From a virus: a stretch of 23,143 bases of DNA. A model generated the notes under the pieces. It made no database searches. It was not told where the DNA came from and was given only the letters and a program-made list of their open reading frames with translations. Position 1 is the stretch's first letter; each line of letters starts with the position of its first letter. Position numbers and translations under genes: made by a program. The stretch covers positions 1 through 23,143 of the IMG/VR virus record IMGVR_UViG_3300025174_000536. One strand, given 5' to 3'. Below are positions 1,010 through 17,299 of the stretch, piece after piece.

Positions 1010-1587
1010 TTCTTCCTCGCAATCGCCACTAGGGGAGTTAGAGTACTTGTGTCGTCTTGGGGAACTTTCAGGGACCAGTCGTACAGCCACACTTGTTGGA
1101 AGACTTCTAAAAGTGCTTTGCGGAACTCACTTGCTTTCCACTCTCTCTCATGCAGTTCCTTCCAGCGTCTCAGATCAGCGTTGGCGTTCCTCGCTGTGAT
1201 GATGAGGTCTCCTCCGAGGTCAAGGTGGTCCCACACATTCTGGAGGGCGCGTCTCCAGTCATGGATGTGTTCGAGAGTTTCCACCATGACTGCGGCGGTG
1301 TACTTTCTATCAGAGTTGAACTTCGTGATATCCCCGGTCATCCAAGTCACGTTGGATAGTGGGAACATCGTCTTAGCGAAGGTCACTGCTCCTGGGTCAA
1401 CGTCTATGGCATGAACGAAACTGACGTTATGGGCATACAGGAGGACTCCTGCTCCGGTCCCGAATCCCACTTCTAGGACGTTCGGCTTTCCGCTCAATTT
1501 CTCTGCGATAGAGAGATAGAGGTCAAACTGCGGCGTCAAGAGGTACCGTAAGCGTCGCCACATAACCTCGTGGGCGGATTCGTTCAC
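1006..1587 (-). CDS. Class I SAM-dependent methyltransferase
   Basis: VLEVGFGTG motif I, AIDVD, GDIT, ETLEHI, LDLGGDLII; GTG start overlapping the upstream stop. Confidence 0.9.
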   Translation of the reverse strand: MNESAHEVMWRRLRYLLTPQFDLYLSIAEKLSGKPNVLEVGFGTGAGVLLYAHNVSFVHAIDVDPGAVTFAKTMFPLSNVTWMTGDITKFNSDRKYTAAVMVETLEHIHDWRRALQNVWDHLDLGGDLIITARNANADLRRWKELHEREWKASEFRKALLEVFQQVWLYDWSLKVPQDDTSTLTPLVAIARKN

Positions 1588-2198
1588 TTAACCTCTCCCA
1601 ACTCCCTCGCTGCGTTCTCTTGGAAGGACATATCCCCGAGCGTAGAAGAGTCAATTCTTGTCCATCCTGGTCTTGGTTCATAGGAGTGCATTCCTCCCCA
1701 AGGGGATAGCCACCACTCGAACTGAGCGGTATGAAGATTCCTCACACGGTCCATCTTGGCCCCGTCGAACCTGGCGCCTAACAACTCTGCCTGATGGAAA
1801 TCGGACTTTCTGAGGTCGCTCCCAATGAAGAGAGTATTCTTGGCGGTGATCCTTCTAAAAAGACACGCCTGGGCGACCGTTCTCAGAAAGATGGTTGCTT
1901 TCATGTAGGCCCCGGTGAAATCAGATCCGGTCATCTCGCAATCGGTGAAGTCAGCTTTATGGAGATCCGCACGGGAGAAGTCGCATCGAATGAACGTGCA
2001 GCCTCGGAAGTTCCCATTGGATAGGTTAGCTCCGCGGAGGTTGCTATTGGTAAAGTTTGCTCCTCGCAGATCGTGTCCTGAGAGGTCGGCTCCCTCCAAA
2101 TTCACTCCAACCAAGGAGCACTTGTAAGCTATCGAGGCGTTCAAGCCGTGGTCCAGATCCTTGAGAACCTTTAGCTTTCTAGGATGTACGAGACTCAT
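1584..2198 (-). CDS. Pentapeptide repeat protein 1 with ~45-aa C-terminal non-repeat domain
   Basis: Tandem A(D/N)LXX-type pentamers (NLEGA DLSGH DLRGA NFTNS NLRGA NLSNG...) over ~125 residues. Confidence 0.93.
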   Translation of the reverse strand: MSLVHPRKLKVLKDLDHGLNASIAYKCSLVGVNLEGADLSGHDLRGANFTNSNLRGANLSNGNFRGCTFIRCDFSRADLHKADFTDCEMTGSDFTGAYMKATIFLRTVAQACLFRRITAKNTLFIGSDLRKSDFHQAELLGARFDGAKMDRVRNLHTAQFEWWLSPWGGMHSYEPRPGWTRIDSSTLGDMSFQENAARELGEVK

Positions 2199-2335
2199 AG
2201 CGTCCAGTCCTCGTCATCGCTTACGAGTTGATGTACCCCATTCCCGGAAGCGATCAGGTACCAGATGGCATACCCGAGCATCCAGACAGGCCCTCCTAAG
2301 ACAAGCCCTAGAACAAAGGCCAGGAAGAGATTCAC
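2195..2335 (-). CDS. Small membrane protein (46 aa)
   Basis: Hand-translated: VNLFLAFVLGLVLGGPVWMLGYAIWYLIASGNGVHQLVSDDEDWTL; GTGA overlap upstream and ATGA overlap downstream; hydrophobic N-terminus, acidic tail. Confidence 0.7.
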   Translation of the reverse strand: MNLFLAFVLGLVLGGPVWMLGYAIWYLIASGNGVHQLVSDDEDWTL

Positions 2336-2427
2336 GGTCTCGTGTACCTAACCATGATGAGGTCAGCTACTACCACTAGCAGACCCAGCACCGCTATTGT
2401 CGCTAAAAGCCTCAGTATCTCGCTCAT
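2332..2427 (-). CDS. Small membrane peptide (31 aa)
   Basis: Hand-translated: MSEILRLLATIAVLGLLVVVADLIMVRYTRP; GAGGAAG SD directly upstream; single TM-like segment; overlaps the 148-aa gene by 65 nt. Confidence 0.6.
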   Translation of the reverse strand: MSEILRLLATIAVLGLLVVVADLIMVRYTRP

Positions 2428-2809
2428 CTTCCTCAAAAGGAGACTGTCCATCCATGATATCCACTGCTTGCTGGGCGTCCTTCTTCCCTCGCTCCTGGCG
2501 AGCTTCTTTCACTTCCTCGGGAGTGTAATCGGTTAGTTTTCCGTCCTCTTGAACGACATTCCCCTCGAGTGCCCTCTTGATGTCCATGTCGTTCCCGAAA
2601 GTTGGGACCTTGAACACCTTGACCTCTCCGGTTTGGGTGAGGTGTCCGTACTGGCCCGTCGCTTTCCAGGCGTCGTGCCAGCCCCACATCTCCTTCAATG
2701 CACCACGGACTTCCGTCAGTTCCCGTTGCTTGTCCTGTATCTGCTTCTTGAGTTGCATCTTCCTGAAATTGAGTTCATCAATACGGTTTTCAATACTGTC
2801 AAGATTCAT
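2363..2809 (-). CDS. Coiled-coil hypothetical protein, paralogue of the glycosyltransferase C-terminal domain
   Basis: N-terminal heptad pattern; GAGGAA SD; ATGA overlap with upstream gene; by-eye similarity to residues 255-373 of the 3362..4483 protein. Confidence 0.8.
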   Translation of the reverse strand: MNLDSIENRIDELNFRKMQLKKQIQDKQRELTEVRGALKEMWGWHDAWKATGQYGHLTQTGEVKVFKVPTFGNDMDIKRALEGNVVQEDGKLTDYTPEEVKEARQERGKKDAQQAVDIMDGQSPFEEDERDTEAFSDNSGAGSASGSS

Positions 2810-3393
2810 TTCCTCAGTGGGATCCTTCCTGCGTTCTCTGGAAACGAATACCCTCCCATGACGCTTCGCTCAAGACGGTAATAGCCCTCTCGGGGTTCGT
2901 AAATCACTCTTCCTCCTCCGATGGGGACGTACCACCAGAAGACCGCGTGATCGGCGTTTGAGATACCCTCCAAGTTAGCTCCGTTGAATCTCGAACCGAT
3001 GAAGTCGCACTGGAAGACATTGGCGCTTCTCAGGTCGGCGTCGAAGAATAGGGCGTTCTTCACTGTTGCTCGTCGCATGGTGACGTTCCACAATCGCGCT
3101 CGGGTGAAATCCGTCGCTCGGAGATAGGACATGCTCATATCCGCACCGGTGAAGTCTGCGTCTGTGCAGTCCGCTCTCAAAAGACAGGCCCTCGACAGAT
3201 CGGTCCGGATGAATTTCGCCCCTCTCAGAGAGGCCTCTGTCAAATCTGCGCCTCTGAGATTGGCGTTGCTCAAGTTGGCGCCGTCCAGACATTTCCCCCT
3301 CAGGTCTACTCTCTCCAGGTCTGCTCCAACCAGTGCGCAATTGAATATCAGCTCCCTGTAGTTACTTGGCCTTGTTAAAGATGTCGATATCAT
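2806..3393 (-). CDS. Pentapeptide repeat protein 2 with C-terminal domain shared with protein 1
   Basis: Tandem pentamers (DLERV DLRGK CLDGA NLSNA NLRGA DLTEA SLRGA...). Start codon less certain (weak SD). Confidence 0.92.
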   Translation of the reverse strand: MISTSLTRPSNYRELIFNCALVGADLERVDLRGKCLDGANLSNANLRGADLTEASLRGAKFIRTDLSRACLLRADCTDADFTGADMSMSYLRATDFTRARLWNVTMRRATVKNALFFDADLRSANVFQCDFIGSRFNGANLEGISNADHAVFWWYVPIGGGRVIYEPREGYYRLERSVMGGYSFPENAGRIPLRK

Positions 3394-4483
3394 CGACGAA
3401 CCCAGCAGCTTCTTTCCTCAGAATGCCCGACCTTGCTTCTCTGGCATCTGCCTCCGTCACATCAGCAAGGTTCATTCGATGCTCAATCATCTGCACCTTC
3501 TCTTCCTCTGTGGCGATGGGAAATTGCTCCTCCTGTCCTCCGGATTGAGGGGATTGCATCTGTTCCAGAAGCCACTTCTCATCGGCGATGACTGCGCTAA
3601 CTGCGATCAACTGCCGGTTGAGGAAGTCGGCGTTCTGCTCGGCCTGATTCTTCTGAGTCTTCAAATCAGCCTGTCTCTCCTCGAGCATCTTAATTCTCAA
3701 TTCAAGAGCTTTTGCGTCCACATCATTTCCTTTCCTGGCGAATTCGAAGAGGTGCCCTGCAAGTGCTCCCAATCTATCACCGGTGGATTTGTGGGTCTTG
3801 AGTCTCTCTGCGATGTCATGATTGAGCCATACCACAAGCGCGTGCCGGCTCTCGATAGAAGCATCGAGCCACAGTCTGTATCCAAGGATTCTAGCGAGAG
3901 TGAAGAAACGGAAATCACTCCCGAGAGAGCGACCATCACCAGTCGCTTCTGGGAGAGGACCAATCCCGAAAGGATTGTCGCCGGGTGGGAGCCGTTTGAG
4001 GACGGCTTCCACCACCCGGCGTTGTATGAGGACGCAGCCCATCCCGGAGATGGCGATCTCGTGCAGCCCACTTCGCGGAACCTCCAGCATCGGGGGGAAC
4101 GGCCATTTGCCGTCTCCAACAACCGAACAAACGCTGTGTATGTTCCTGGCGTTGCGGGCGTAGTAATGCCCGGTCACCATGTCTACGTCATGCGAACGCA
4201 GACGCTCCAGGATATCTGGGGGATGGAGCATGTCGAGGTCAAAGAGGGCAACTGCGTCGAGTTTCCCTTCCAGGAACTCTTCGCACGCCAAGGACCGCGC
4301 GACATCTCCTCTACCAGAGGCGCGTTCCTGTTTGTAATCGCCTGGCCGTATCTGGATCTCGTAGAACGTCCGTAACGACTTGACGTACTGCGTTTCTCCA
4401 GAGATGCCCGCGATATAGATCTTTGTGGCCTTCGGCCTAATGCGAGGCGCTGCCGAGGGTGGCTCGGGTGAAGCGGTGGCCAT
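3362..4483 (-). CDS. GT-A fold (GT2-like) glycosyltransferase with C-terminal coiled-coil domain
   Basis: VARSLACEEFL, DxD motif in LFDLDM, DMVTGHYYAR, GMGCVLIQRRV, GSDFRFF..AR.LGY.LWLD...H, a pattern typical of GT2-like enzymes; last ~120 aa charged and helical. Confidence 0.82.
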   Translation of the reverse strand: MATASPEPPSAAPRIRPKATKIYIAGISGETQYVKSLRTFYEIQIRPGDYKQERASGRGDVARSLACEEFLEGKLDAVALFDLDMLHPPDILERLRSHDVDMVTGHYYARNARNIHSVCSVVGDGKWPFPPMLEVPRSGLHEIAISGMGCVLIQRRVVEAVLKRLPPGDNPFGIGPLPEATGDGRSLGSDFRFFTLARILGYRLWLDASIESRHALVVWLNHDIAERLKTHKSTGDRLGALAGHLFEFARKGNDVDAKALELRIKMLEERQADLKTQKNQAEQNADFLNRQLIAVSAVIADEKWLLEQMQSPQSGGQEEQFPIATEEEKVQMIEHRMNLADVTEADAREARSGILRKEAAGFVDDIDIFNKAK

Positions 4484-4880
4484 ACCGCGCCGTCCCAGCT
4501 GCTGTCGAGATACAGAGAGCGAACCGGTATACGTCGGCGGTGGCTAACGCCAACCAGATGTCACCCTTGGTCAGGCCGGCGCTCGCCGGTGCAGTCGAAA
4601 GGATCGGAAGGCGTAGCCGCGCAAATGCGGTCTGACCGACGGTTCCCTTGCCGAGGATCACCCCAGATGCTCCTATCGCTCCGGGATAGGTCAAACTTCC
4701 GAGCGAACTGAAATAGGAAAGCTCTGCGTTCGCACTGTCCCGGAAGACGATGTAATCCCCGCTCATGCTGGCCGGCCCGTCGATGGTCAGGATATCCGTT
4801 GCGGCAGTCACGCCCTCCATGTTCGAATGCCCATAGAGCGGCACTGCCAAGCCTTTGTAGGTATCTGTTCCTGCTGGCAT
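4437..4880 (-). CDS. Putative virion (capsid decoration/fibre-like) protein
   Basis: Directly downstream of the major capsid gene; Ala/Gly/Thr/Ser-rich, beta-type composition; AAGGAG SD. Function is positional inference. Confidence 0.55.
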   Translation of the reverse strand: MPAGTDTYKGLAVPLYGHSNMEGVTAATDILTIDGPASMSGDYIVFRDSANAELSYFSSLGSLTYPGAIGASGVILGKGTVGQTAFARLRLPILSTAPASAGLTKGDIWLALATADVYRFALCISTAAGTARYGHRFTRATLGSASH

Positions 4881-5008: not shown

Positions 5009-6259
5009 TTAGGTCCATGCTTCCTGTGCGACGCTCACTTCCTCCCGCAGCAAGCGGTTCTCGGCGATCCGTCCATATCCGCCCCAGAATTTGAACCCGA
5101 GGGTCCAGAACTGGTCCAGGATGCCGTCACGCTTCGGGCCGACGATCTCCCCAAACTCACCCACCTCGGGTGCGTACAGTTTCAGCAGAGAGCCGGGGCC
5201 ACCGAACACGACCAGATGGACGCTATCTGCGTTCCGTACCGAGTTGGTCGCAGGGTGTGCGAACCGCAAGCCACCGTTCGGGCCTTGCCCGACGATGGTA
5301 GCTGTTGAACCAGTAAAACCGGTGATGCGCACGCGCTCGTTCTGAGGGTAGTGCGTATTGGCGGTTTCCTCGGTTCCGATGTTGAGCCACTGTCCCGCGG
5401 CTTCGGTCTGGTCCATGTGGGTATTCGCGGCTACTCTAAGTGAGGTCGCTAGCGGGTTCACCGCGGTGTTCAATGTAGTCGCCGTGATATCCACTGCGTC
5501 CAGCCCCGCGCCGTAGAGGATCTTCGCCCAACTGGAGACCAGGAGGCGGAACGGTCCCAATTCGCCGAGTTCCCAGTTGAGGTGGATACCAGCCTGCTGG
5601 TACTGTCCCACAGCTTGAACAGAACCATCCTGTCGGAGGTCAGCGAAGGCGAATGGGTCGATCATGGCAGACCATCGCCGTGCCTGTTGTCCACCGTCAG
5701 ACATCCCCTCAAACATCGGAGCCTTCAAGTCCCCCAACTGGTTGGCTGCGTTGGCGAACTTGGTCTCGGTGAGACGGTGAGAGGTGGTTCCCGCATCCAG
5801 GGATGCGCGCGCGGCGGTGCGGTTCACCAAAGTTCCTTGGGTAGCCGCGTCTCGCGCAAGCACATCGATGGTCTCGGCCGCGCCTTCTGCGACCGTCTTG
5901 ACCAGCTTCTCCATGTAGTCGTTCAGGAAGTTACGGATCTGGATCTGCTGGGAGGTCTGGATCGCCTCACCACGGCTGGTGGGCGTGATGGTCGCCACAG
6001 CATCCCGAAGTGCTTGCGGGGTGATGTCGGCGGTTTCAGAGATGGCGCTTGTACCAATTGCCATTTTGGAGATGAAGTTGGCCTGGACCGCTGACCCCCG
6101 GATGAGTTCGGCCATATCGCGGCCCATCGGGATCGCCAGCTGGTCGTAGTAGCGGGAGAAGTAGACCTCTTCCGCGTACTGGTCCAGGTATTGAGTGCGG
6201 GTGGAGTTGGAGAGTGCGACTGCACCAGCTCCACCCGCAGCACTGGTCTGGATAGGCAT
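5009..6259 (-). CDS. Major capsid protein (HK97 fold, N4-gp56-like)
   Basis: Follows the scaffold-like gene; motifs such as SAISETADIT, AMIDPFAFADL, GELGPFRLL and C-terminal DGILDQFWTLGFKFWGGYGRIAENRLLREE resemble N4-gp56-family capsid proteins. Confidence 0.85.
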   Translation of the reverse strand: MPIQTSAAGGAGAVALSNSTRTQYLDQYAEEVYFSRYYDQLAIPMGRDMAELIRGSAVQANFISKMAIGTSAISETADITPQALRDAVATITPTSRGEAIQTSQQIQIRNFLNDYMEKLVKTVAEGAAETIDVLARDAATQGTLVNRTAARASLDAGTTSHRLTETKFANAANQLGDLKAPMFEGMSDGGQQARRWSAMIDPFAFADLRQDGSVQAVGQYQQAGIHLNWELGELGPFRLLVSSWAKILYGAGLDAVDITATTLNTAVNPLATSLRVAANTHMDQTEAAGQWLNIGTEETANTHYPQNERVRITGFTGSTATIVGQGPNGGLRFAHPATNSVRNADSVHLVVFGGPGSLLKLYAPEVGEFGEIVGPKRDGILDQFWTLGFKFWGGYGRIAENRLLREEVSVAQEAWT

Positions 6260-7328: not shown

Positions 7329-10300
7329 TCATTGCACGGCGTCCACCAAAGCCCGCCAATCTGGGAAACCCAGCCTTTCGGCCAGCGTTTCTAAGCGGTC
7401 AATCGCTGCGGGGGGCATCTGCTCTCCGCTTTGATAGTCGAGGAGAAGGTTCCAGAGCGAACCTCCCAAGGTTGATTGCCATTCTTGGGGGCTTCGCTGC
7501 TGTCTCTGGACAAATGGTGTGGGTTCACCGCCTCGAACAGCATCCAACCACAAACGGTACATCTGATCACCCATGATCTTACGGAGGTCTTCCAAAGCTT
7601 CTGGGGCTGGTTTTGCCTGTGGTCCAGCCCCAGGGGTGGCGTATTTGGCAATCTGCTCCGCGATCCAGACCTCTCGTTTGGCAGTTGGATCGGTGATTTC
7701 CATTTCCTCAACAGGTTCCATGCCTTCGCGGAAGATGGCAGGGGCAGCATCAGGAAGTAACAGAGCAGCTTTGGAAACTCGAATTTCGATGGCTGGTTCT
7801 TCTTGGCTCTTGAAAGCGCCGTATTGCTCCAACTGAGGATGGTCCTTCCAGTATTGTTTCGCTGCTTTGCTGTCGATATCCCTCAGTTGGTAATACACCT
7901 CGAAGTGATCCCAGAGGTCGTCCCCAAATAGTCTTGCGGCGGCCTCGTACATCTCACCTTTGTAGTATCCCCTGATCCTCTCGGCGCTGGTGTAGTACGC
8001 ACCCAAGAGAGGGGTCATTTGGACGATCTGCTGCTGCCAGTCTAGCGCCTCGTCAATCTGAGGGTGTTGCTTCAAGATAGCGTCCCCAATTTCAGGGCGG
8101 TCTGGATCTCTCGCACCGAAGTAGTAGTCAACCAGTTCCCAGATGTCTTCACCGAACTGCTTTTCCACCTGAGTCCGCATCTGGCCATAGAGAGATTGAG
8201 CCGCATTCCACTCTGCGGAGGTTGCACTATCAGGAACGTCCAGTAAAGCCCCTAAATCAAGGACGGCTCCCATGAACTTCAATCTCTCCGCCTCGGACAT
8301 CTTGGTGAAGTCGCCCTTGGATTCTCGGAAGGCTGAAATGGTCTCAGAAGTGATTCCCACTCTCTCGGCCATCTCGGAGGTCATCCCCGGAGGAATTCTA
8401 TCGAGGATGTTCCAGGCGAAGGCTTCATCTCTATCCAGACCGGACTTCTTCGCCATCAGTAGAGCATCCATGAAAGGATAGGCCGCTTCGAGATCAGACC
8501 ATGCCTTTCGATACTCGTCAGGGCTGTAATCGGGCTTCTTCAGCATTAGACCGAACATCTCGTTGTAGAAACGATCTATCTGTACATCTTCTTCGGTGCG
8601 CATTTTGAAACCTGTCCCCAGAAAGAAGGGGGCCGCTACAGCGAACAGATTGGGGGCTCGGATGTTGATAGCTCTTGCTCGGGCCTCATCCCAGATCGGC
8701 CCCTCTTGGTTGTAAGCCGCATCCACAATCTGCGCCGCGGGATAGTTCTCCTCATCAATCATCGCCCCGATCTGACGGGCTACTCTTGGTCTTTCCCACG
8801 GGTCCATCCCACCCCCGAAGTAGTTGACGAATGGATCTAGCTCAATCCCCAATCCTTGAGGGTCCATGAGGGCGGTAACGTCTCGGAAGATTCTGGTAGG
8901 GGAATAGAGTCTTCCAGCCCATCTCGCGGCGGCGTCTTCTTGTCCCTCGCTGTGGTACTTCAGTGCCAGAAGAAGTTGATATGGCAACCATGTGGAAGGA
9001 CCGAACTTCTGGATATCCTCCAGAGTTCTTCCCCACCAATCCAATCGTCTTCGGGGATCGGTGAAGTCCACTCCCGTTAGCCCATTGAGGGGATTCAAGG
9101 AGGCTTCCAGGTTGAACCAGATCGGAGCCTTAGTATCCAATCCTAAGAGATCGCTCACATTGAGGCTGTACTTCCACCAATCCGGTAAACCAGCATGTTC
9201 GACCTCAAGAGTGTGCCGGTAGCGGGCATAGTTTGCTACGAGGCTCGGATGCGCTAAAGCACGTTTCATCCAGCGTAGATAAGTCCTTGAATGCCAGAAC
9301 TGATAAGGATAGATGTAGGAGGCTACGAGATCGAGTCCTATCCGCTTCCCGTAGTCATGCAGGATGGCATCTCTTGTGGCTTGAGCGATTGCGATAGCTT
9401 TTGCTCTCACCTCATCCATCCGACCGCCGACTTGTTTCACCCAGCCCGCGAGTTGTCTCTCAACGTCCGGTCCCAAAGGAGGAACGCGACCTCCCCAGTT
9501 GTCCGAAAGTCCTTGTTTGAGGTTCTCGATAGCCCTTTCCGCCGCGGGTTGGCTTTCGTGGAAGAAGCGGTTTACAGACGGAAAGCCATCGTCGGCGCTT
9601 GAAACCAGGGGGACTTCTTGAGGACGACTAAGGACCTCATCGAACATCCGTGCCGTGAATTCTTCCGCTTCCATTCCCGCTTCGGCTGCGGCTGCTTTGG
9701 CAGCTTGATCCAGATCGGCGTCTCCGAGAATTCGGATAACGCCTTCTGGGTCGGCAGTTCGCAGTCTTTCCACAAACCCAGCAGCTTTTGTCGGTTCCGC
9801 CCCTTCCCCGAAGAGGGTCTGATACTGTCTCAGGAAACTGGACTGGAGCGTAGTTTGGGCAGAGACAGTTGCCACTCCGTCTACTAATTCCGCCTGATCC
9901 ATCATCCGCGCTCTAGTAAGTTGAGTTTCAGCAACCTGTCTTAATGGGGTGTTGGCGTCGATGCCCGCCATTCCCGCAAGTAGCTGACCTGAGTTGTCAT
10001 GCTGGGAAACGACGTACTCCCGCAATTGGATGTATCTCTGATTCTGGACCTCTCTATAGTTGTCCCAGAGGGCGTTCCTAAATGCGTCGGCGCTCAGATT
10101 TTCGGGGATGTCTCCTAACTGTCGTTCCCGCCACATCTTGCGCAGGAGGGGGTGGTCGGTTGGAAGATTTCTGGAGGCCTCGCTCATCCCCCAGGTCCCA
10201 GATGGAGGTTTCTTCCTCCCAAGGAAAACATCGGCCTGTCTGAAAGCATCGTCCGTTGCTCCGCGGACGTTTGCCCTTACAGGTTCGGTAATCCGCTTCA

Positions 10301-13064
10301 TGGCTTCTTCGGCCGCTTTGAGTCCGTCCTCTACAGTCCTTCCGTGTGTCTGAGCTTCTCGGATAAACGCTGCATTGATCTGAACGCGGGCCATCTCTCC
10401 GATTTCGTGACCGTACTCCTCAAACTGTCGTATCGTCTCTCTGGATTCGTGAACACGGCGCATGAAGATGTCTGCTTGTTCGTCGCTGAGGTTTTGACTT
10501 ATGGCATGGGCGGCTTCTTGGCCCGTCCTAGCAAACTCGTCGGTAGGAAGGACCATTGGGGGCTCGTTCGCCGCGCCCAACCCGACGTTGCTTCGCTCTC
10601 TCACCAGATCATCTAGCGCAGCGACGGCCTTTTCCTGAGACTCGGCCTCTCGGACTCTTTTTAGGGCTTCGTCGTATAGTCTGAGATCGCGAAGTTCTTG
10701 GACCTGCTCATCGGTTAGAAAGGATAGGTTGTCTACAACAGAGGCCCCGCCTCGCTCTCGCAGTTGGTTGACTGCGGCCTTAGCATTGCCCCAGTTGTCT
10801 CTTGAGACCGCTTGAAGAAAAGCCCGTTGTTCATCCGAGAGACCCACAACATTCTCCAAACCAGATAAAGCCCTGGAAGGTGTAAGAGCGTTTGCCATCG
10901 TGTCTCTTACGGATTTCTCTACGACGTGCGCAGCGACACCAGCCTCTTCTTGAGCGGCTTTCACGGTCCCGAATTTGCCGCTGAATCTTCGGAGGAGTCC
11001 TTCGGTCCCGATCTTGCCTCCTGGTACAGAGCCAGCGGCACCCAAACCCCGGATAGCAGCCTCGGAGACTGCTCCCAGCATAGTGTTGATATTGTCTAGA
11101 GCTTTGACAGGGGATACACCAAACAGGGCATTTGCGGCCACCTTGGGGCCGACATCTACTAGAGCAGGCATGAAATTCCCATAGCGGTTGTGCATCACGT
11201 AAATGGGATTTTCCAGGAAAAGAACTCTTTGGAGGTTCGCCGCGGGTTGGTAGACCCACTTTTGCATCGCTTCGTGGACGGGCTGGAGGGCCGTCTGAAG
11301 TTGAGATAGTTCCTGTCCAGCGATAGGGTTCTTTGCCAGGAAGGCGGCTCTCTCGGCTTCGTCCTCAATAGCCAGGTACTCATTCCGTAGCGCAGCGTGT
11401 TCTTTGACAGTTGGGAAGACTTCCTTGAGGGCATTGTCCAAATCCCTTCCCAGAAGGTCGGCCAACTTAGCGGGATCGCCTTCGGCTTGCTCGATGATCC
11501 GTCCGATACGTCCAGGGTTGAAGTTTCCCGCATCGTCAATAGAAAGAGTCCTGAGGAAGACGCCACTTTCCAATCCCGATTGTGAGAGAGCGACCTCGGG
11601 ACTGAGGCCGATTCGATTGAGAATCCCCAACCCCTCTTGCACCCTGGCTAGATCGGGATCGTTCAGGTAAGCAATTGCCTTAACGGCATCGAATAGTGAA
11701 TCGGGATCGTTTCCCGAACGTGCAATGAGGACCTGTAGGAAGTTGTTGGTTGTCTCGGAGCGAGTAGCTAACTTGCTGGGTGCGTCCAAATCCAATAAAC
11801 CGCGTTTAGCCGCCTCTTCTAGAATTCCGGTTCTTGCGGCTTGGGAACTCCTCTGAACTGCATCCAATAGAGTCAGATTTGCTTGAGAGATCGCGTTGTC
11901 TCCCACCGCGGCGCCGACGTTATCCAATGCTTTTGCAACGTCGGGGACCATCGTGGAAACTCTTCGAGTAGCCTCGGTTACTCTTGCGACCTTCGCCGCC
12001 CCGCTGGTCACCAAATCCAAAAGGTTCAGAGGGTCGTAGATAGCTTGTCCCAAAGCTTCGGCACCTGGGTTTTCCAGTTCCATCGCCAGGAGTCTAGGAT
12101 CCTCTCCAGCCTCTATCCTTCGGACAAACTCTTCTCTCAGTGCAGGATCTCTCCATGCAGAGTAGGCAATCCTCGCGGACTCTTGGTTAGCTCTTCGAAG
12201 TTCTGCGTACTCCTCGAACGTAGCTTGTCCTCGGAGAATGGCAAGACCTGTCTCTAACTGAACTGGAATAACAGCGAGCGGACCAAGTTTGCGGAACCAC
12301 TCATGCCATTCGGGGACAGGTTTTCCCTGTCTGGCATAGGAACGTCGGATAAGCTCGTCTGAGGCTAAGAGGGTAGGACCCACCGCCTCTCGTTCAACGG
12401 CGAGTGCAGGTTGCATAGCAGCTTGTAGGACGGTCTGAACGACGGCGCCTGAAAATCTAGCTAGTTGTCCGAAAACGGGAATCTGTTCACCAGCTTCCCA
12501 GGAGGTTTTAGCCAAACCCACTGCCGCTCCAAGAAGTGATTGGCCAAATTGGCCGAGAAGAGGACCTGCTTGGGATGTCTGGGTTTCTAAGTCCTGATGG
12601 CCAAGCGAAAAGAGCGCCGCTAGATTCTGTCTAACAGGTTCGAGTGCATCGAGGGCTTGCTGTGGGAGTTGCAGAGGCTCAGGACGATCCTTCTCGAAGA
12701 AGTTGTATCTCAATTGGCGCATGAAGCCCTGAAGACCGGGACCAAAATCCGGGGTTCCTAAAGACGTCCACCCCTTAGCTTCTTTTGGGAGAGGTTGTCC
12801 CCAGGGCCCATTCTTTTGGGTTGAGTATGTAGCGGCCCATTCCGCGGGGAGCCCCCGTTCATTAAGTACCGGCTGGGCTGGTGGAGGAGCACGAAGCTCA
12901 GCCATTGTCTCATTGACGGTATTGGCCCATTCGGTCGGTTCTTCAGCACCGAACAGAGACCGGTAGATGACCGTGCGAATAGGAGGTACAGCAGCGCCAA
13001 CAACCTTCGCCTTCTTGATTGCTTGTTCGAGAGTAGGACGTTCAGTAGATCGCTCTTCAGCCAA
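7329..13064 (-). CDS. Very large (1911 aa) probable internal virion / DNA ejection protein
   Basis: Single 5.7-kb ORF in the head operon; TTG start with GGAG SD; mostly alpha-helical composition, no Gly-X-Y or tape-measure repeats, no catalytic motif recognised by eye. Confidence 0.6.
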   Translation of the reverse strand: MAEERSTERPTLEQAIKKAKVVGAAVPPIRTVIYRSLFGAEEPTEWANTVNETMAELRAPPPAQPVLNERGLPAEWAATYSTQKNGPWGQPLPKEAKGWTSLGTPDFGPGLQGFMRQLRYNFFEKDRPEPLQLPQQALDALEPVRQNLAALFSLGHQDLETQTSQAGPLLGQFGQSLLGAAVGLAKTSWEAGEQIPVFGQLARFSGAVVQTVLQAAMQPALAVEREAVGPTLLASDELIRRSYARQGKPVPEWHEWFRKLGPLAVIPVQLETGLAILRGQATFEEYAELRRANQESARIAYSAWRDPALREEFVRRIEAGEDPRLLAMELENPGAEALGQAIYDPLNLLDLVTSGAAKVARVTEATRRVSTMVPDVAKALDNVGAAVGDNAISQANLTLLDAVQRSSQAARTGILEEAAKRGLLDLDAPSKLATRSETTNNFLQVLIARSGNDPDSLFDAVKAIAYLNDPDLARVQEGLGILNRIGLSPEVALSQSGLESGVFLRTLSIDDAGNFNPGRIGRIIEQAEGDPAKLADLLGRDLDNALKEVFPTVKEHAALRNEYLAIEDEAERAAFLAKNPIAGQELSQLQTALQPVHEAMQKWVYQPAANLQRVLFLENPIYVMHNRYGNFMPALVDVGPKVAANALFGVSPVKALDNINTMLGAVSEAAIRGLGAAGSVPGGKIGTEGLLRRFSGKFGTVKAAQEEAGVAAHVVEKSVRDTMANALTPSRALSGLENVVGLSDEQRAFLQAVSRDNWGNAKAAVNQLRERGGASVVDNLSFLTDEQVQELRDLRLYDEALKRVREAESQEKAVAALDDLVRERSNVGLGAANEPPMVLPTDEFARTGQEAAHAISQNLSDEQADIFMRRVHESRETIRQFEEYGHEIGEMARVQINAAFIREAQTHGRTVEDGLKAAEEAMKRITEPVRANVRGATDDAFRQADVFLGRKKPPSGTWGMSEASRNLPTDHPLLRKMWRERQLGDIPENLSADAFRNALWDNYREVQNQRYIQLREYVVSQHDNSGQLLAGMAGIDANTPLRQVAETQLTRARMMDQAELVDGVATVSAQTTLQSSFLRQYQTLFGEGAEPTKAAGFVERLRTADPEGVIRILGDADLDQAAKAAAAEAGMEAEEFTARMFDEVLSRPQEVPLVSSADDGFPSVNRFFHESQPAAERAIENLKQGLSDNWGGRVPPLGPDVERQLAGWVKQVGGRMDEVRAKAIAIAQATRDAILHDYGKRIGLDLVASYIYPYQFWHSRTYLRWMKRALAHPSLVANYARYRHTLEVEHAGLPDWWKYSLNVSDLLGLDTKAPIWFNLEASLNPLNGLTGVDFTDPRRRLDWWGRTLEDIQKFGPSTWLPYQLLLALKYHSEGQEDAAARWAGRLYSPTRIFRDVTALMDPQGLGIELDPFVNYFGGGMDPWERPRVARQIGAMIDEENYPAAQIVDAAYNQEGPIWDEARARAINIRAPNLFAVAAPFFLGTGFKMRTEEDVQIDRFYNEMFGLMLKKPDYSPDEYRKAWSDLEAAYPFMDALLMAKKSGLDRDEAFAWNILDRIPPGMTSEMAERVGITSETISAFRESKGDFTKMSEAERLKFMGAVLDLGALLDVPDSATSAEWNAAQSLYGQMRTQVEKQFGEDIWELVDYYFGARDPDRPEIGDAILKQHPQIDEALDWQQQIVQMTPLLGAYYTSAERIRGYYKGEMYEAAARLFGDDLWDHFEVYYQLRDIDSKAAKQYWKDHPQLEQYGAFKSQEEPAIEIRVSKAALLLPDAAPAIFREGMEPVEEMEITDPTAKREVWIAEQIAKYATPGAGPQAKPAPEALEDLRKIMGDQMYRLWLDAVRGGEPTPFVQRQQRSPQEWQSTLGGSLWNLLLDYQSGEQMPPAAIDRLETLAERLGFPDWRALVDAVQ

Positions 13065-13958
13065 TTAGATTCTCCAATTGACAAGCCCAAAGCCACCGGA
13101 AAACCTGCTTCCGCCGGATTGATTGGACCCAAAGCCGCCAAGTCTTATAGTTCCTCCACCGCCTCCACCTAGAGCTCCACCACCTCTACCTAGACCTCCA
13201 CCTGTTCCATTCCCAGCTGTCATAATGCCCTCAGGCTTGTACCACAGTCCAGTCCCGAGATTGATGTATCCCATACGCGTCAAGAGATCGGCTCCTGAAC
13301 CTGCCCCCGCTCTGGATGCGATGACATCAAAGACTCTCTCATTTGCAGTACGAGGGAGTTGCCCAAGATCGTAGAGACCGTGCTCGGTGAAAAATACGTT
13401 CGTAGCGAGTGCAGTATCGGGGGCATTGCGGGAAATTGTCGCAGATTGGAAGCGAGCTTGCTCGAGGGCGCGCTCGGGGTCCACTGAACGTATCCTATCG
13501 AGATATTGCAATGCTTGCGCAGTCGCTGGTGGAATAGGTCCGCCGCCCGCGGGTCCAGTCTGGACGACTGGCTGCGCCACTGTAGGAATAGCAGGCGTGG
13601 GACTGGGCGTGACTTGTCCCGGAATTGTTCCAATCGTTCCCACGGCTGAAGGGGTGGGTGTAGGACCGAAAACACCTACCTGACCAACGGCTGATGGGGT
13701 AGGTGTTACTCCATACACACCAGCGGTCTGACCCAACTGATACGGGGTGGGCGTCGGTGTAGGAAGGGGTGGGGTTGGGGTTAGTGTTGGCGTAGGAACA
13801 GGAGCTGGTGTAGGACCAAAGATACCCACCTGGCCGACCGCGGAAGGAACGGCTGGTGCAACAGGTTTGCCCTTAATCGTTTTCTTGAGTTTCTTAGCGA
13901 CTTTGGGTTTCTTCTGCGCTGAGATTGAGTCGCCCCCGCCGTTGTACAGTATTGGCAT
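13065..13958 (-). CDS. Low-complexity Pro/Thr- and Gly-rich putative virion protein
   Basis: Lys-rich N-terminus, PT repeats, repeated PSAVGQVG(I/V)FGPTP, Gly-rich C-terminus ending GLVNWRI; GAGGA SD. Confidence 0.75.
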   Translation of the reverse strand: MPILYNGGGDSISAQKKPKVAKKLKKTIKGKPVAPAVPSAVGQVGIFGPTPAPVPTPTLTPTPPLPTPTPTPYQLGQTAGVYGVTPTPSAVGQVGVFGPTPTPSAVGTIGTIPGQVTPSPTPAIPTVAQPVVQTGPAGGGPIPPATAQALQYLDRIRSVDPERALEQARFQSATISRNAPDTALATNVFFTEHGLYDLGQLPRTANERVFDVIASRAGAGSGADLLTRMGYINLGTGLWYKPEGIMTAGNGTGGGLGRGGGALGGGGGGTIRLGGFGSNQSGGSRFSGGFGLVNWRI

Positions 13959-15913: not shown

Positions 15914-17299
15914 TCATCGCCTTCCGAAGTGACTCCAGGGTGATGGTTCCTTCTTCCTGGAAGCGAACCATGCTGGAAGAGCAGCCATCTCCGCCGGCGG
16001 AGCCAGGTTTCCTAGTTGGGTCGCTCCTAATATCATATAGTAAGTTGCGTCAAGCGTATCATCATGCCTCCCGAGAGGCCATGATACCCACTCGTCCTCA
16101 AACGCTTGGAGGAACTCGGTCTTCTTGTCGGAGACCCAGACTCGGGAGAATTCGAAGAGAGGCTGCATCTGCTTCTCGAAACGATTTCCTTTCGACTTGC
16201 CTCCCGTCGTAGCGGGGAAAATCGGCAGTCTAGAATTTCTCAATAGAAGATGGTAGAACTCCTCACCCTTTCCAACGGCTTCCACGATTACAAGAACGGT
16301 GGTGGGATACATCCCAGCCCACGATCTTACTAAATGCTCTGCCTCACCCTGGGACACCTGCCCCCTATAGCCGTCTACAAGAACAACTCCGCCTCCGGGA
16401 AGTAATCTCCCAATGCTGATGGCGAAGTAGTCCTTTTCTTTCTTGATCATTTTGTCGGCGGTGGAGGCATAGTCCACTCCCATTACGACGGGCCAGGAGG
16501 GACTGATGTCCTCATAGGGATATTCATGTAACCACTCTTTCTTCAGGTTCAATCCCTTCGCTGCTTCCAAGTCTAATAGATACGCTCTAGCAAATAGTAA
16601 CTCACCCGAGAGCTTCCTCAGTTTATCAATCTCTTCAGGAGGGTATTTGTCGAGCCATAGAGGAACTCCATCTAAGAGAATGGGAGTCCTCACTACATGG
16701 AACATCTCGGTTGATTTGACGTAGGCTATCGTGTCCTTCACTGTCCAGGGCGTGCCAATTACGACGGTGATCGTGGTGGGAGTTCGGCGCGGAAAGATGG
16801 TCCCCTGCAATAAATCTTGAGTCTTACGCTGCTCTCTGTCAGAAGAGGTTGTATTCTCGTCGTCGATGTCGTCAATCAATAAGACTCCATCAGGATGTTT
16901 CCCTAGAATGCCGCGAGCAGTTCTTCCATATCCCACGAAGGAAGGACCGCTTCTGTCTGCAACCGTCCTGGTCCAGTCCCCATAAGGGACATCGGCCCGT
17001 TTAACGAAATACCCCATTGCGCCCCAGCCTGTTTCTGGATCTGGGACTACATACGGAAAACACGCTTTCCAGATGTCGTTGTGTTGGATGATCTGAGCAA
17101 TGCGAGCCGCATTCGCAGCCGCACTTTCATCGGACACCTGAATGAGCATGTTCCCTCGTTCAGGCTTCAGCCCAATCTGGTAGGCCATGAAGGTGACGAA
17201 TGTAGTGGTTTTGGTGGAACCTGCAAACGCTTCTACGAGGAGACTTCCGTGGGCCTTCTCATATAGTGCATCAATCCAGCCCCTGGCATGAGCAGGCAT
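15914..17299 (-). CDS. terL: Terminase large subunit
   Basis: Walker A-like EAFAGSTKTTT, Walker B LLIDDIDD, motif III VIGTPW, nuclease acidic motifs VMGVDYAS, IVEAVG, HDDTLDA. Frame stays open upstream to 17413, so the true start may lie upstream of 17299. Confidence 0.93.
   Translation of the reverse strand: MPAHARGWIDALYEKAHGSLLVEAFAGSTKTTTFVTFMAYQIGLKPERGNMLIQVSDESAAANAARIAQIIQHNDIWKACFPYVVPDPETGWGAMGYFVKRADVPYGDWTRTVADRSGPSFVGYGRTARGILGKHPDGVLLIDDIDDENTTSSDREQRKTQDLLQGTIFPRRTPTTITVVIGTPWTVKDTIAYVKSTEMFHVVRTPILLDGVPLWLDKYPPEEIDKLRKLSGELLFARAYLLDLEAAKGLNLKKEWLHEYPYEDISPSWPVVMGVDYASTADKMIKKEKDYFAISIGRLLPGGGVVLVDGYRGQVSQGEAEHLVRSWAGMYPTTVLVIVEAVGKGEEFYHLLLRNSRLPIFPATTGGKSKGNRFEKQMQPLFEFSRVWVSDKKTEFLQAFEDEWVSWPLGRHDDTLDATYYMILGATQLGNLAPPAEMAALPAWFASRKKEPSPWSHFGRR

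Follow-up and report, generated by a model that had tools for sequence, protein, structure and literature searches.

TarS and TarP are glycosyltransferases (GTs) of the GT-A type with C-terminal oligomerisation or substrate-binding domains, and mycobacteriophage-encoded GTs reportedly modify capsid and tail-tube proteins, a finding attributed to Freeman et al. in 2023, a study that PMC11256854 mentions. Pentapeptide-repeat proteins (PRPs) are very common in bacteria and phages; apart from the gyrase-protecting DNA mimics, hardly any has, to our knowledge, a function assigned to it. How cytoplasmic protein GTs gain acceptor specificity is under study in flagellin systems. Specificity comes from a fused binding domain in FlmG (PMC7591256), and a TPR domain is fused in Maf-1, while Maf-2 works with a free, cis-encoded helical protein, GlfM, a relationship described as 'tripartite/bipartite interconversion' (bioRxiv 10.1101/2023.12.03.569772). 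Among virus-encoded enzymes, A197 of STIV is thought to glycosylate the STIV major capsid protein (PMC10551542). Here we analyse the IMG/VR virus record IMGVR_UViG_3300025174_000536 (about 44% complete), whose whole stretch of 23,143 nucleotides (nt) we call the window. It holds a GT gene accompanied by two pairs, each made of a helical coiled-coil unit (the coil) and a PRP. We favour the reading, tentatively and at a little less than an even chance, that the region belongs to an accessory cassette for glycosylation at the head/tail gene boundary of uncultivated podovirus-like phages from groundwater, sediment and spring, with a coil-tethered PRP targeting the GT.

The genes that a first-pass annotation had placed in this region were all confirmed on the minus strand. 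The GT (373 amino acids (aa), 3362-4483) has a catalytic domain at about residues 20-230 and a fused coil domain at residues 252-373. It is followed by PRP1 (195 aa, 2806-3393), by a free-standing coil protein of 148 aa that is homologous to the GT tail (2363-2809) and, after a short interval, by PRP2 (204 aa, 1584-2198). We refer to the first pair, in which the coil is usually GT-fused, as the alpha lineage, and to the second, with a free-standing coil, as the beta lineage. The cassette consists of three modules: a GT-A enzyme, an acidic helical coil of about 120 residues, and a PRP beta-helix with a family-specific C-terminal region.

The 148-aa protein had been aligned by eye with residues 255-373 of the GT, and this homology proved to be real. 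Pairwise statistics alone are marginal: the best BLASTP E was 0.05, and Smith-Waterman alignment gave z values of 2.2-2.6 (about 2.4), with 44-65 of 2000 shuffles scoring as high. By themselves, these values would suit the view that the similarity is coiled-coil compositional noise and that a second module is absent. However, profiles were decisive. A hidden Markov model (HMM) of the tail that drew on 28 GT homologues and not on the window GT gave the 148-aa protein a score of 37.9 bits (E 1e-13, one target), against at most 10.7 bits among 2000 shuffles; the GT's own coil domain scored 137 bits. Consistently, hhalign placed residues 1-124 of the 148-aa protein on GT residues 255-371 with 95% probability and E 3.9e-8, in the same register as the drawing made by eye. 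The coil domain is defined by an N-terminal (G)M/V-D....R(I/L)..LE motif, a Pro that never varies and, at its C-terminal end, a ..R......A...V.D helix; both proteins carry these features, and R9, P69 and R104 are invariant in 17 coil sequences. The shared motifs that are not of coiled-coil type, including the invariant Pro and the EAR...A..V.D helix, argue against noise, as does the retrieval of free and GT-fused forms by a single profile in an exhaustive search. After the profile and shuffle tests we rejected compositional noise, which now appears hardly credible.

That exhaustive profile search, of 1.84 billion representatives, returned 127 cluster representatives at E up to 1e-3. Free-standing coils were the commoner form (82, versus 26 fused to a GT); one was fused to a PRP, and about 16 were other or spurious long coiled coils. 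The PRP fusion, P0123 (364 aa), joins a coil at residues 20-141 (42 bits) to a beta-type PRP with its C-terminal domain at residues 159-346 (244 bits). Its cluster, P0123/P0160, has two members from two contigs and assemblies, one residue apart, and a scan of viral contigs for the contig that bears the fusion found none. All the fusion states of adjacent modules, GT-coil, coil alone and coil-PRP, are therefore present. In the AlphaFold2 (AF2) model of the window GT, the alpha coil domain (3365-3721, minus strand) forms a long helix (residues 257-310), a linker and two helices (326-337 and 344-372). Most coils are acidic, with a net charge of -5 to -10. Searches of Pfam, PDB sequences and the ESM Atlas with the coil domain gave generic coiled-coil noise only. 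With the 148-aa protein as query, a word-index search returned the query alone and a scan of viral contigs returned nothing. Its nearest relatives are the coil of a related phage locus (L014), the census protein P0043 and the free coils of phages that have only a beta pair (type B, below), and it shares with these type-B coils a G(D/Q)(W/Y)G insertion and a DG(Q/R/M)SP end. We infer that the coil is a previously undescribed helical domain with a predicted adaptor role.

Some further coil sequences were seen in passing. P0043 (138 aa), the close relative of the window's free coil, shares its ...QQAVDIMDGQSP... end and is recorded on a 1.39-Mb ENA contig, where it may belong to a prophage in a bacterial genome. 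P0131 (280 aa, from an ENA metagenome) ends in DQSPFGEE like the window's coil and joins the C-terminal half of a beta-type coil to an uncharacterised N-terminal domain of 190 residues, another fusion partner of the coil. At locus L007, an open reading frame (ORF) starting MSDPEITADALIRRINRLEEEL (2079-2345) lies 3' of the single module, is cut by the contig end and may be a further coil.

The boundary at which the coil is fused to the GT resembles a translation start. When aligned, all ten fused GT genes have an ATG or GTG opposite the Met1 of free coils; in the window this site is the GTG of Val255 (3719-3721), with AAAGGA upstream, and equivalent sites are found in L003, L005, L007, L009, L010, L013, L014 and L015. 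Where the site encodes Val, the codon is GTG in six of six cases, compared with 27% among other Val codons, and a Shine-Dalgarno (SD)-like motif precedes the site in 9 of the 10 fused genes, compared with a background of 16%. The upstream amino acids vary and the purine motif stays, and because these genes are related, nominal probabilities overstate their independence. It may be that the fused GT gene also yields an internally initiated free coil, for which this site is the candidate start.

The two PRP genes are indeed paralogues, as had been suggested. Identity between PRP1 and PRP2 is 44% across 176 residues (E 8e-53), the non-repeat C-terminal region included. Both score far above the PF00805 cut-off of 20.2 bits (PRP1, 91.6 bits and E 2e-26; PRP2, 101.3 bits and E 1.8e-29). 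The AF2 model of PRP1 predicts a beta-helix at residues 20-145 with a predicted local distance difference test (pLDDT) score above 90, and its Foldseek matches include Np275/276 (E 8e-9), HetL (root-mean-square deviation 1.0 Å over 144 columns) and MfpA. The fold is the right-handed quadrilateral beta-helix of the family, and both PRPs are genuine members. The C-terminal region that follows (2806-2976 in PRP1 and 1584-1757 in PRP2) conforms to the pattern N..A.F.W...P.GG..Y.P..G....S..G.S..EN, with 10 invariant positions among 12 sequences (alignment A4). It is poorly modelled, the pLDDT dropping from 74 to 40, and may fold only on a partner. PRP1 and PRP2 carry net charges of +3.6 (isoelectric point (pI) 8.9) and +3.1 (pI 8.6), respectively; across the family the pI ranges from 4.8 to 9.0, and most members are near neutral. 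Judged by charge and not by surface, both proteins fail to show the strongly electronegative DNA-mimic character of the MfpA/Qnr type.

To follow the cassette in other phages, we scanned viral and metagenome contigs with the GT as seed and annotated the resulting 27 loci with HMMs of each part. The GT/coil/PRP cassette recurs in about 20 related phage contigs, in several architectures. In the first (A), a GT with fused coil is followed by an alpha-type PRP (L003, L005, L007, L009, L010 and L013). Type B combines a tail-less GT of about 243 aa with a free coil of 220-240 aa, a beta-type PRP and, where the contig allows, sugar genes (L021-L024 and L028; L019 and L025 end at the coil). Type C has a GT, then a free alpha coil of 117 aa, then a PRP (L011 and L012), and type D, represented by L014, has both pairs in the window's order. 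GTs of type E keep the first helix of the tail only, and in both cases (L004 and L006) a PRP is absent. A third phage with both pairs, L031, has GT-coil, PRP, free coil and PRP, followed by cytidylyltransferase and NeuB genes. Both pairs occur in the same alpha-then-beta order in the window, L014 and L031; the other phages have one pair only.

The coil and this PRP subfamily were found to be strictly linked. A PRP of the subfamily lies directly 3' of the coil in 19 of the 19 coil units with readable downstream DNA, so that the pair proposed in the first-pass annotation stays together in other phages. A PRP-seeded scan of viral contigs, independent of the GT, gave more than 530 PRP hits in that single collection. 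Among the best 80 loci, which were examined, the family-specific C-terminal domain was present in one, L031, with its GT-coil, PRP, coil and PRP; the other 79 were without it, and in these 80 loci the subfamily was never seen apart from coil and GT. Gene boundaries of type-B cassettes have a peculiarity of their own, in that 61-88 nt at the 3' end of the GT gene are shared with the free coil gene in the -1 frame (L019, L021, L022, L023, L024 and L028), with both frames conserved, for example at L022 5651-5738. The coil start is preceded by AGGAGG, 5 nt before the ATG, in five of these six loci, and by a weaker AAGGA before the ATG in L023. We considered a programmed frameshift joining GT and coil in the beta-only phages and set it aside as unnecessary, because the coil ORFs have their own SD-like motif and ATG.

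Phylogenetic trees suggest that the two pairs represent old lineages. The coil and PRP trees contain matching clades: window and L014 in the beta lineage; L013 with L014, and the window with L003, L007 and L009, in the alpha lineage; and the type-B loci. PRP2 is sister to the PRP2 of L014 (support 100/99), in a beta group that also includes the second PRP of L031 (PRPb), the P0123 fusion and the type-B PRPs, and PRP1 belongs with those of L003, L007 and L009. The window's free coil clusters with the free coils of type B at 94/96, a grouping to be read with caution because of long branches. In the PRP tree, support for the deep division into alpha and beta is weak (55/89). Phages with two modules always hold one pair of each lineage, and the window's copies are closer to copies in other phages than to their own paralogue. 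Between the two modules no DNA-level similarity was found (best blastn E 0.04 over 18 nt), which indicates that the duplication is old. The first-pass annotation had read the two units as a coil-PRP pair that was duplicated in tandem and diverged. The pair as a unit, and the paralogy of its two copies, are borne out by linkage, matching clades and the P0123 fusion, and a functional coil-PRP pair is strongly supported by these comparisons. A recent tandem duplication private to this phage was rejected, since the lineages are shared with L014 and L031, closer relatives occur in other phages, and the modules lack DNA similarity. Judged from the trees, the paralogy of the two pairs is ancient and was followed by differential loss or module exchange.

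A PRP follows the coil in both units of the window, as the same annotation had described; of the two tiny membrane ORFs that it placed before PRP2, one holds up. The 46-aa membrane-like ORF (2195-2335, minus strand), between the beta coil and PRP2, has a weakly similar counterpart of 60 aa in the same position in L014 (7009-7191), also membrane-like, with which it shares a hydrophobic stretch and the pattern ..LG..IW.Y...SDDE..W; 13 of 3000 shuffles scored as high. No small ORF lies between beta coil and PRP in L031. The 39-aa ORF (2332-2451, minus strand) is probably no gene, because it overlaps the coil ORF by 89 nt, including the conserved DGQSPF end, and has a counterpart in none of the loci.

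The GT itself was modelled with a pLDDT of 84 as a GT-A fold followed by the 54-residue helix, a disordered linker and the two further helices. The best Foldseek match of this model is A197 of STIV (E 5.7e-9; TM-score 0.63 on the target), followed by ColGalT1, LH3, Mimivirus R699 and RmlT, with protein-modifying GT-A enzymes among the structures nearest after A197; at least 167 PDB matches were obtained at E up to 0.001, and the top ones are all GT-A enzymes. A197 likewise ranks first among the sequence-profile matches (E 0.005), its DED falling opposite the DxD of the window GT. We gathered 30 GT homologues, all but a few of which carry the tail. D82 and D84 of the DxD motif and H214 are invariant across the 29 that were included in alignment A1. 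The window GT has no Pfam match at E up to 0.01 and does not reach the gathering score of Glycos_transf_2; weak GT2 matches were found in 12 of the 29 homologues (best E 2.7e-4). The enzyme is thus filed by fold only, as a member of an apparently unclassified GT-A family, because the Glycos_transf_2 model is not reached.

The genes of the window form one string on the minus strand, which runs from the terminase gene through head genes and the cassette to sugar genes at the contig end. The terminase gene (15914-17299) comes first and is followed by ORFs of 613, 297, 1911 and 255 aa, by the major capsid gene (5009-6259; PHROG major head protein, E 2.5e-11) and by a conserved 147-aa protein, p147 (4437-4880), that is syntenic across loci. 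Capsid gene and p147 lie upstream of the GT at every locus that reaches that far. We tried p147 as a homologue of the protein annotated 'head decoration protein' in MW202608 and dropped the idea, as similarity was undetectable. A Pro/Thr-repeat protein is encoded at 13065-13958. The 1911-aa ORF (7329-13064) is without a Pfam match, and a similarly huge ORF occupies the same position in a Manatee Spring podovirus (L030, MW202608.1). Downstream of PRP2 lie genes for an S-adenosylmethionine (SAM) methyltransferase (1006-1587; Pfam Methyltransf_23/25/11), a CMP-sugar-type cytidylyltransferase (302-1090; Pfam CTP_transf_3, E 3.8e-18) and a NeuB-like synthase that is cut by the contig end (1-318; Pfam NeuB, E 2.4e-7). 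The same genes also follow the cassette in L005, L014, L022, L023, L024 and L031. Several relatives have a second methyltransferase gene 3' of the PRP (L005 7675-8403, L009 1427-2314 and L023 7089-7676), called FkbM-like by eye from its VDVGA.IG motif, and the set of sugar-modification genes differs from cassette to cassette. The cassette looks like one translationally coupled operon, because gene ends overlap by 4 nt (PRP1/coil and 46-aa ORF/PRP2, both ATGA, and PRP2/methyltransferase) or, at the GT 3' end and PRP1 start, by 32 nt.

When 50,697 deposited phage genomes were searched at the nucleotide and protein levels, the first 8 kb of the window and its GT stayed unmatched; the sole match there was the capsid protein, with 48.5% identity to Manatee Spring podoviruses. 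The head genes recur in the related Manatee Spring podovirus, and a tblastn search of its phage collection found no match to the window's GT. The GTDB species genomes that were searched contain relatives neither of the GT nor of the C-terminal domain of beta-type PRPs, so no host can be named.

How might such a cassette work? We propose that the coil acts as a hinge, which can be fused to the GT, free or fused to the PRP, and which keeps an internal start signal when it is GT-fused. It would physically tether its cognate PRP to the GT, and the PRP would serve as a targeting or acceptor-recognition subunit. The combination of acidic coils with the basic PRPs of the window suits such binding and argues against DNA mimicry. 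Virion proteins are the probable substrates of the single GT, because the cassette adjoins head genes, the enzyme is linked to A197, and NeuB, cytidylyltransferase and methyltransferase genes accompany it; the methyltransferase, CMP-sugar synthetase and NeuB genes would supply the GT in part, and two PRPs would give two target specificities. The most complete version of this proposal is a three-part phage protein-glycosylation machine, in which the PRP recognises the acceptor, the helical adaptor, both fused and internally started as a free form, tethers the GT-A enzyme, and two pairs address two virion or host targets. We regard that version as possible and, on balance, rather unlikely.

Several observations weigh against the favoured reading. 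Not all members of the wider GT family come with a PRP, and its absence from L004 and L006 indicates that the GT can work without one. In the beta-only phages the GT has no fused coil, so that contact between coil and catalytic domain is hypothetical. The alpha PRPs of L013 and L014 do without the conserved C-terminal region, which is therefore not essential for every pair, and the coil-PRP fusion P0123/P0160 comes from one population only. GT-A enzymes of the DxD type normally take UDP- or GDP-sugars and not CMP-nonulosonates, and any tie between this enzyme and the genes for NeuB and the cytidylyltransferase may therefore be indirect; in L003, sugar genes are absent from the 4 kb of sequence that lies beyond GT-coil-PRP. 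Morons with host-directed functions also typically sit among structural genes.

Among other explanations, we consider it unlikely, and yet the strongest of the competitors, that coil and PRP are themselves virion parts, a coiled-coil stalk and a beta-helical knob on the head that serve as acceptors of the GT, the two pairs being alternative decorations. The position of the cassette between capsid/decoration-like genes and tail genes would fit, a long helix (54 residues) and a rigid beta-helix are shapes used in phage fibres, and the small membrane-like ORF is not required. However, most alpha cassettes fuse the coil to the enzyme, which would be unusual for a structural stalk, and the cassette is dispensable, as seen in the related Manatee Spring genome without a GT match. 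Moreover, the PHROG structural families yielded no similarity, and the PRPs are small (about 195 aa), with no anchoring domain predicted in the model.

A clearly less probable alternative takes the PRPs as host-directed effectors, for example MfpA/Qnr-like DNA mimics acting against gyrase or DNA-targeting defences, with the coil as partner or regulator and a GT that shares their timing but no complex. MfpA, Qnr and AlbG, the best-characterised bacterial PRPs, are DNA mimics and are among the Foldseek matches, and the generic PRPs that abound in viral contigs nearly all lack this GT. This subfamily behaves differently: it is found only with coil and GT, the coil being GT-fused in at least 26 cluster representatives, it lies in a late, structural gene string, and its members are basic in the window (pI 8.6-8.9) and mostly near neutral elsewhere. 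It is slightly more doubtful still that the coil is a mere oligomerisation domain of the GT, as in TarS, TarP and RmlT, next to an independent PRP, with the free coil as a decaying or regulatory remnant of a duplication. GT-A enzymes with helical C-terminal oligomerisation domains are known, RmlT is among the fold matches, and the pairwise similarity of free coil and tail is weak. Against this, free coils outnumber the fused form and are conserved over long distances, with R, P and R positions that never vary; fusion of the coil to a PRP also occurs, coil and PRP clades match, and the double arrangement has been kept in three divergent phages. A glycosylation cassette with coil-tethered PRPs remains the account that we tentatively favour.

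If its most complete version, the three-part machine, is right, it would give PRPs their first assigned role in glycosylation and reveal a new way to programme acceptor specificity. Gene order, matching clades and three fusion states tie this PRP subfamily to the GT and yield a concrete hypothesis for one PRP class. The cassette bears on the specificity question raised by the flagellin enzymes; it would add a case from uncultivated phages of groundwater and sediment, one that probably concerns virion glycosylation. No Pfam family is reached by the coil domain, by the C-terminal region of the PRPs or by the GT family, and all three could, going by their alignments, be defined as new families.

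Compared with known systems, the closest likeness in working, and in working only, is to FlmG, Maf and GlfM, where a cytoplasmic protein GT likewise lies beside NeuB and CMP-sugar genes and its specificity module is either fused or separate. The parts differ: Maf and FlmG are outside this GT-A family, GlfM is a four-helix bundle, the repeats are TPR and not pentapeptide, and the window's cassette is phage-borne; the GT and coil gave no Pfam or PDB sequence match to Maf, FlmG or GlfM. A197 (PDB 2c0n), the best profile and fold match, is also a virus-encoded minimal GT-A enzyme. Unlike the window GT, with its helical domain of 120 residues and its PRPs, A197 belongs to an archaeal virus, has neither extra domain nor partners, and shares about 18% identity. 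The mycobacteriophage systems offer a parallel in that phage GTs are thought or shown to decorate the virion proteins of their own phage, but these have not been described with coil or PRP partners and belong to other hosts and phage lineages. With the PF00805 proteins HetL, Np275/276, Rfr, MfpA, Qnr and AlbG, the window's PRPs share the repeats and the beta-helix, HetL fitting at 1.0 Å, and they differ in their basic to neutral charge, their family-specific C-terminal region and their strict link to coil and GT. In RmlT, TarS and TarP, finally, a GT-A catalytic domain is also followed by a helical C-terminal extension; there, however, the extension is always fused and binds polymer or oligomerises, whereas the coil described here has its own start signal, is more often encoded separately and also occurs fused to a PRP.

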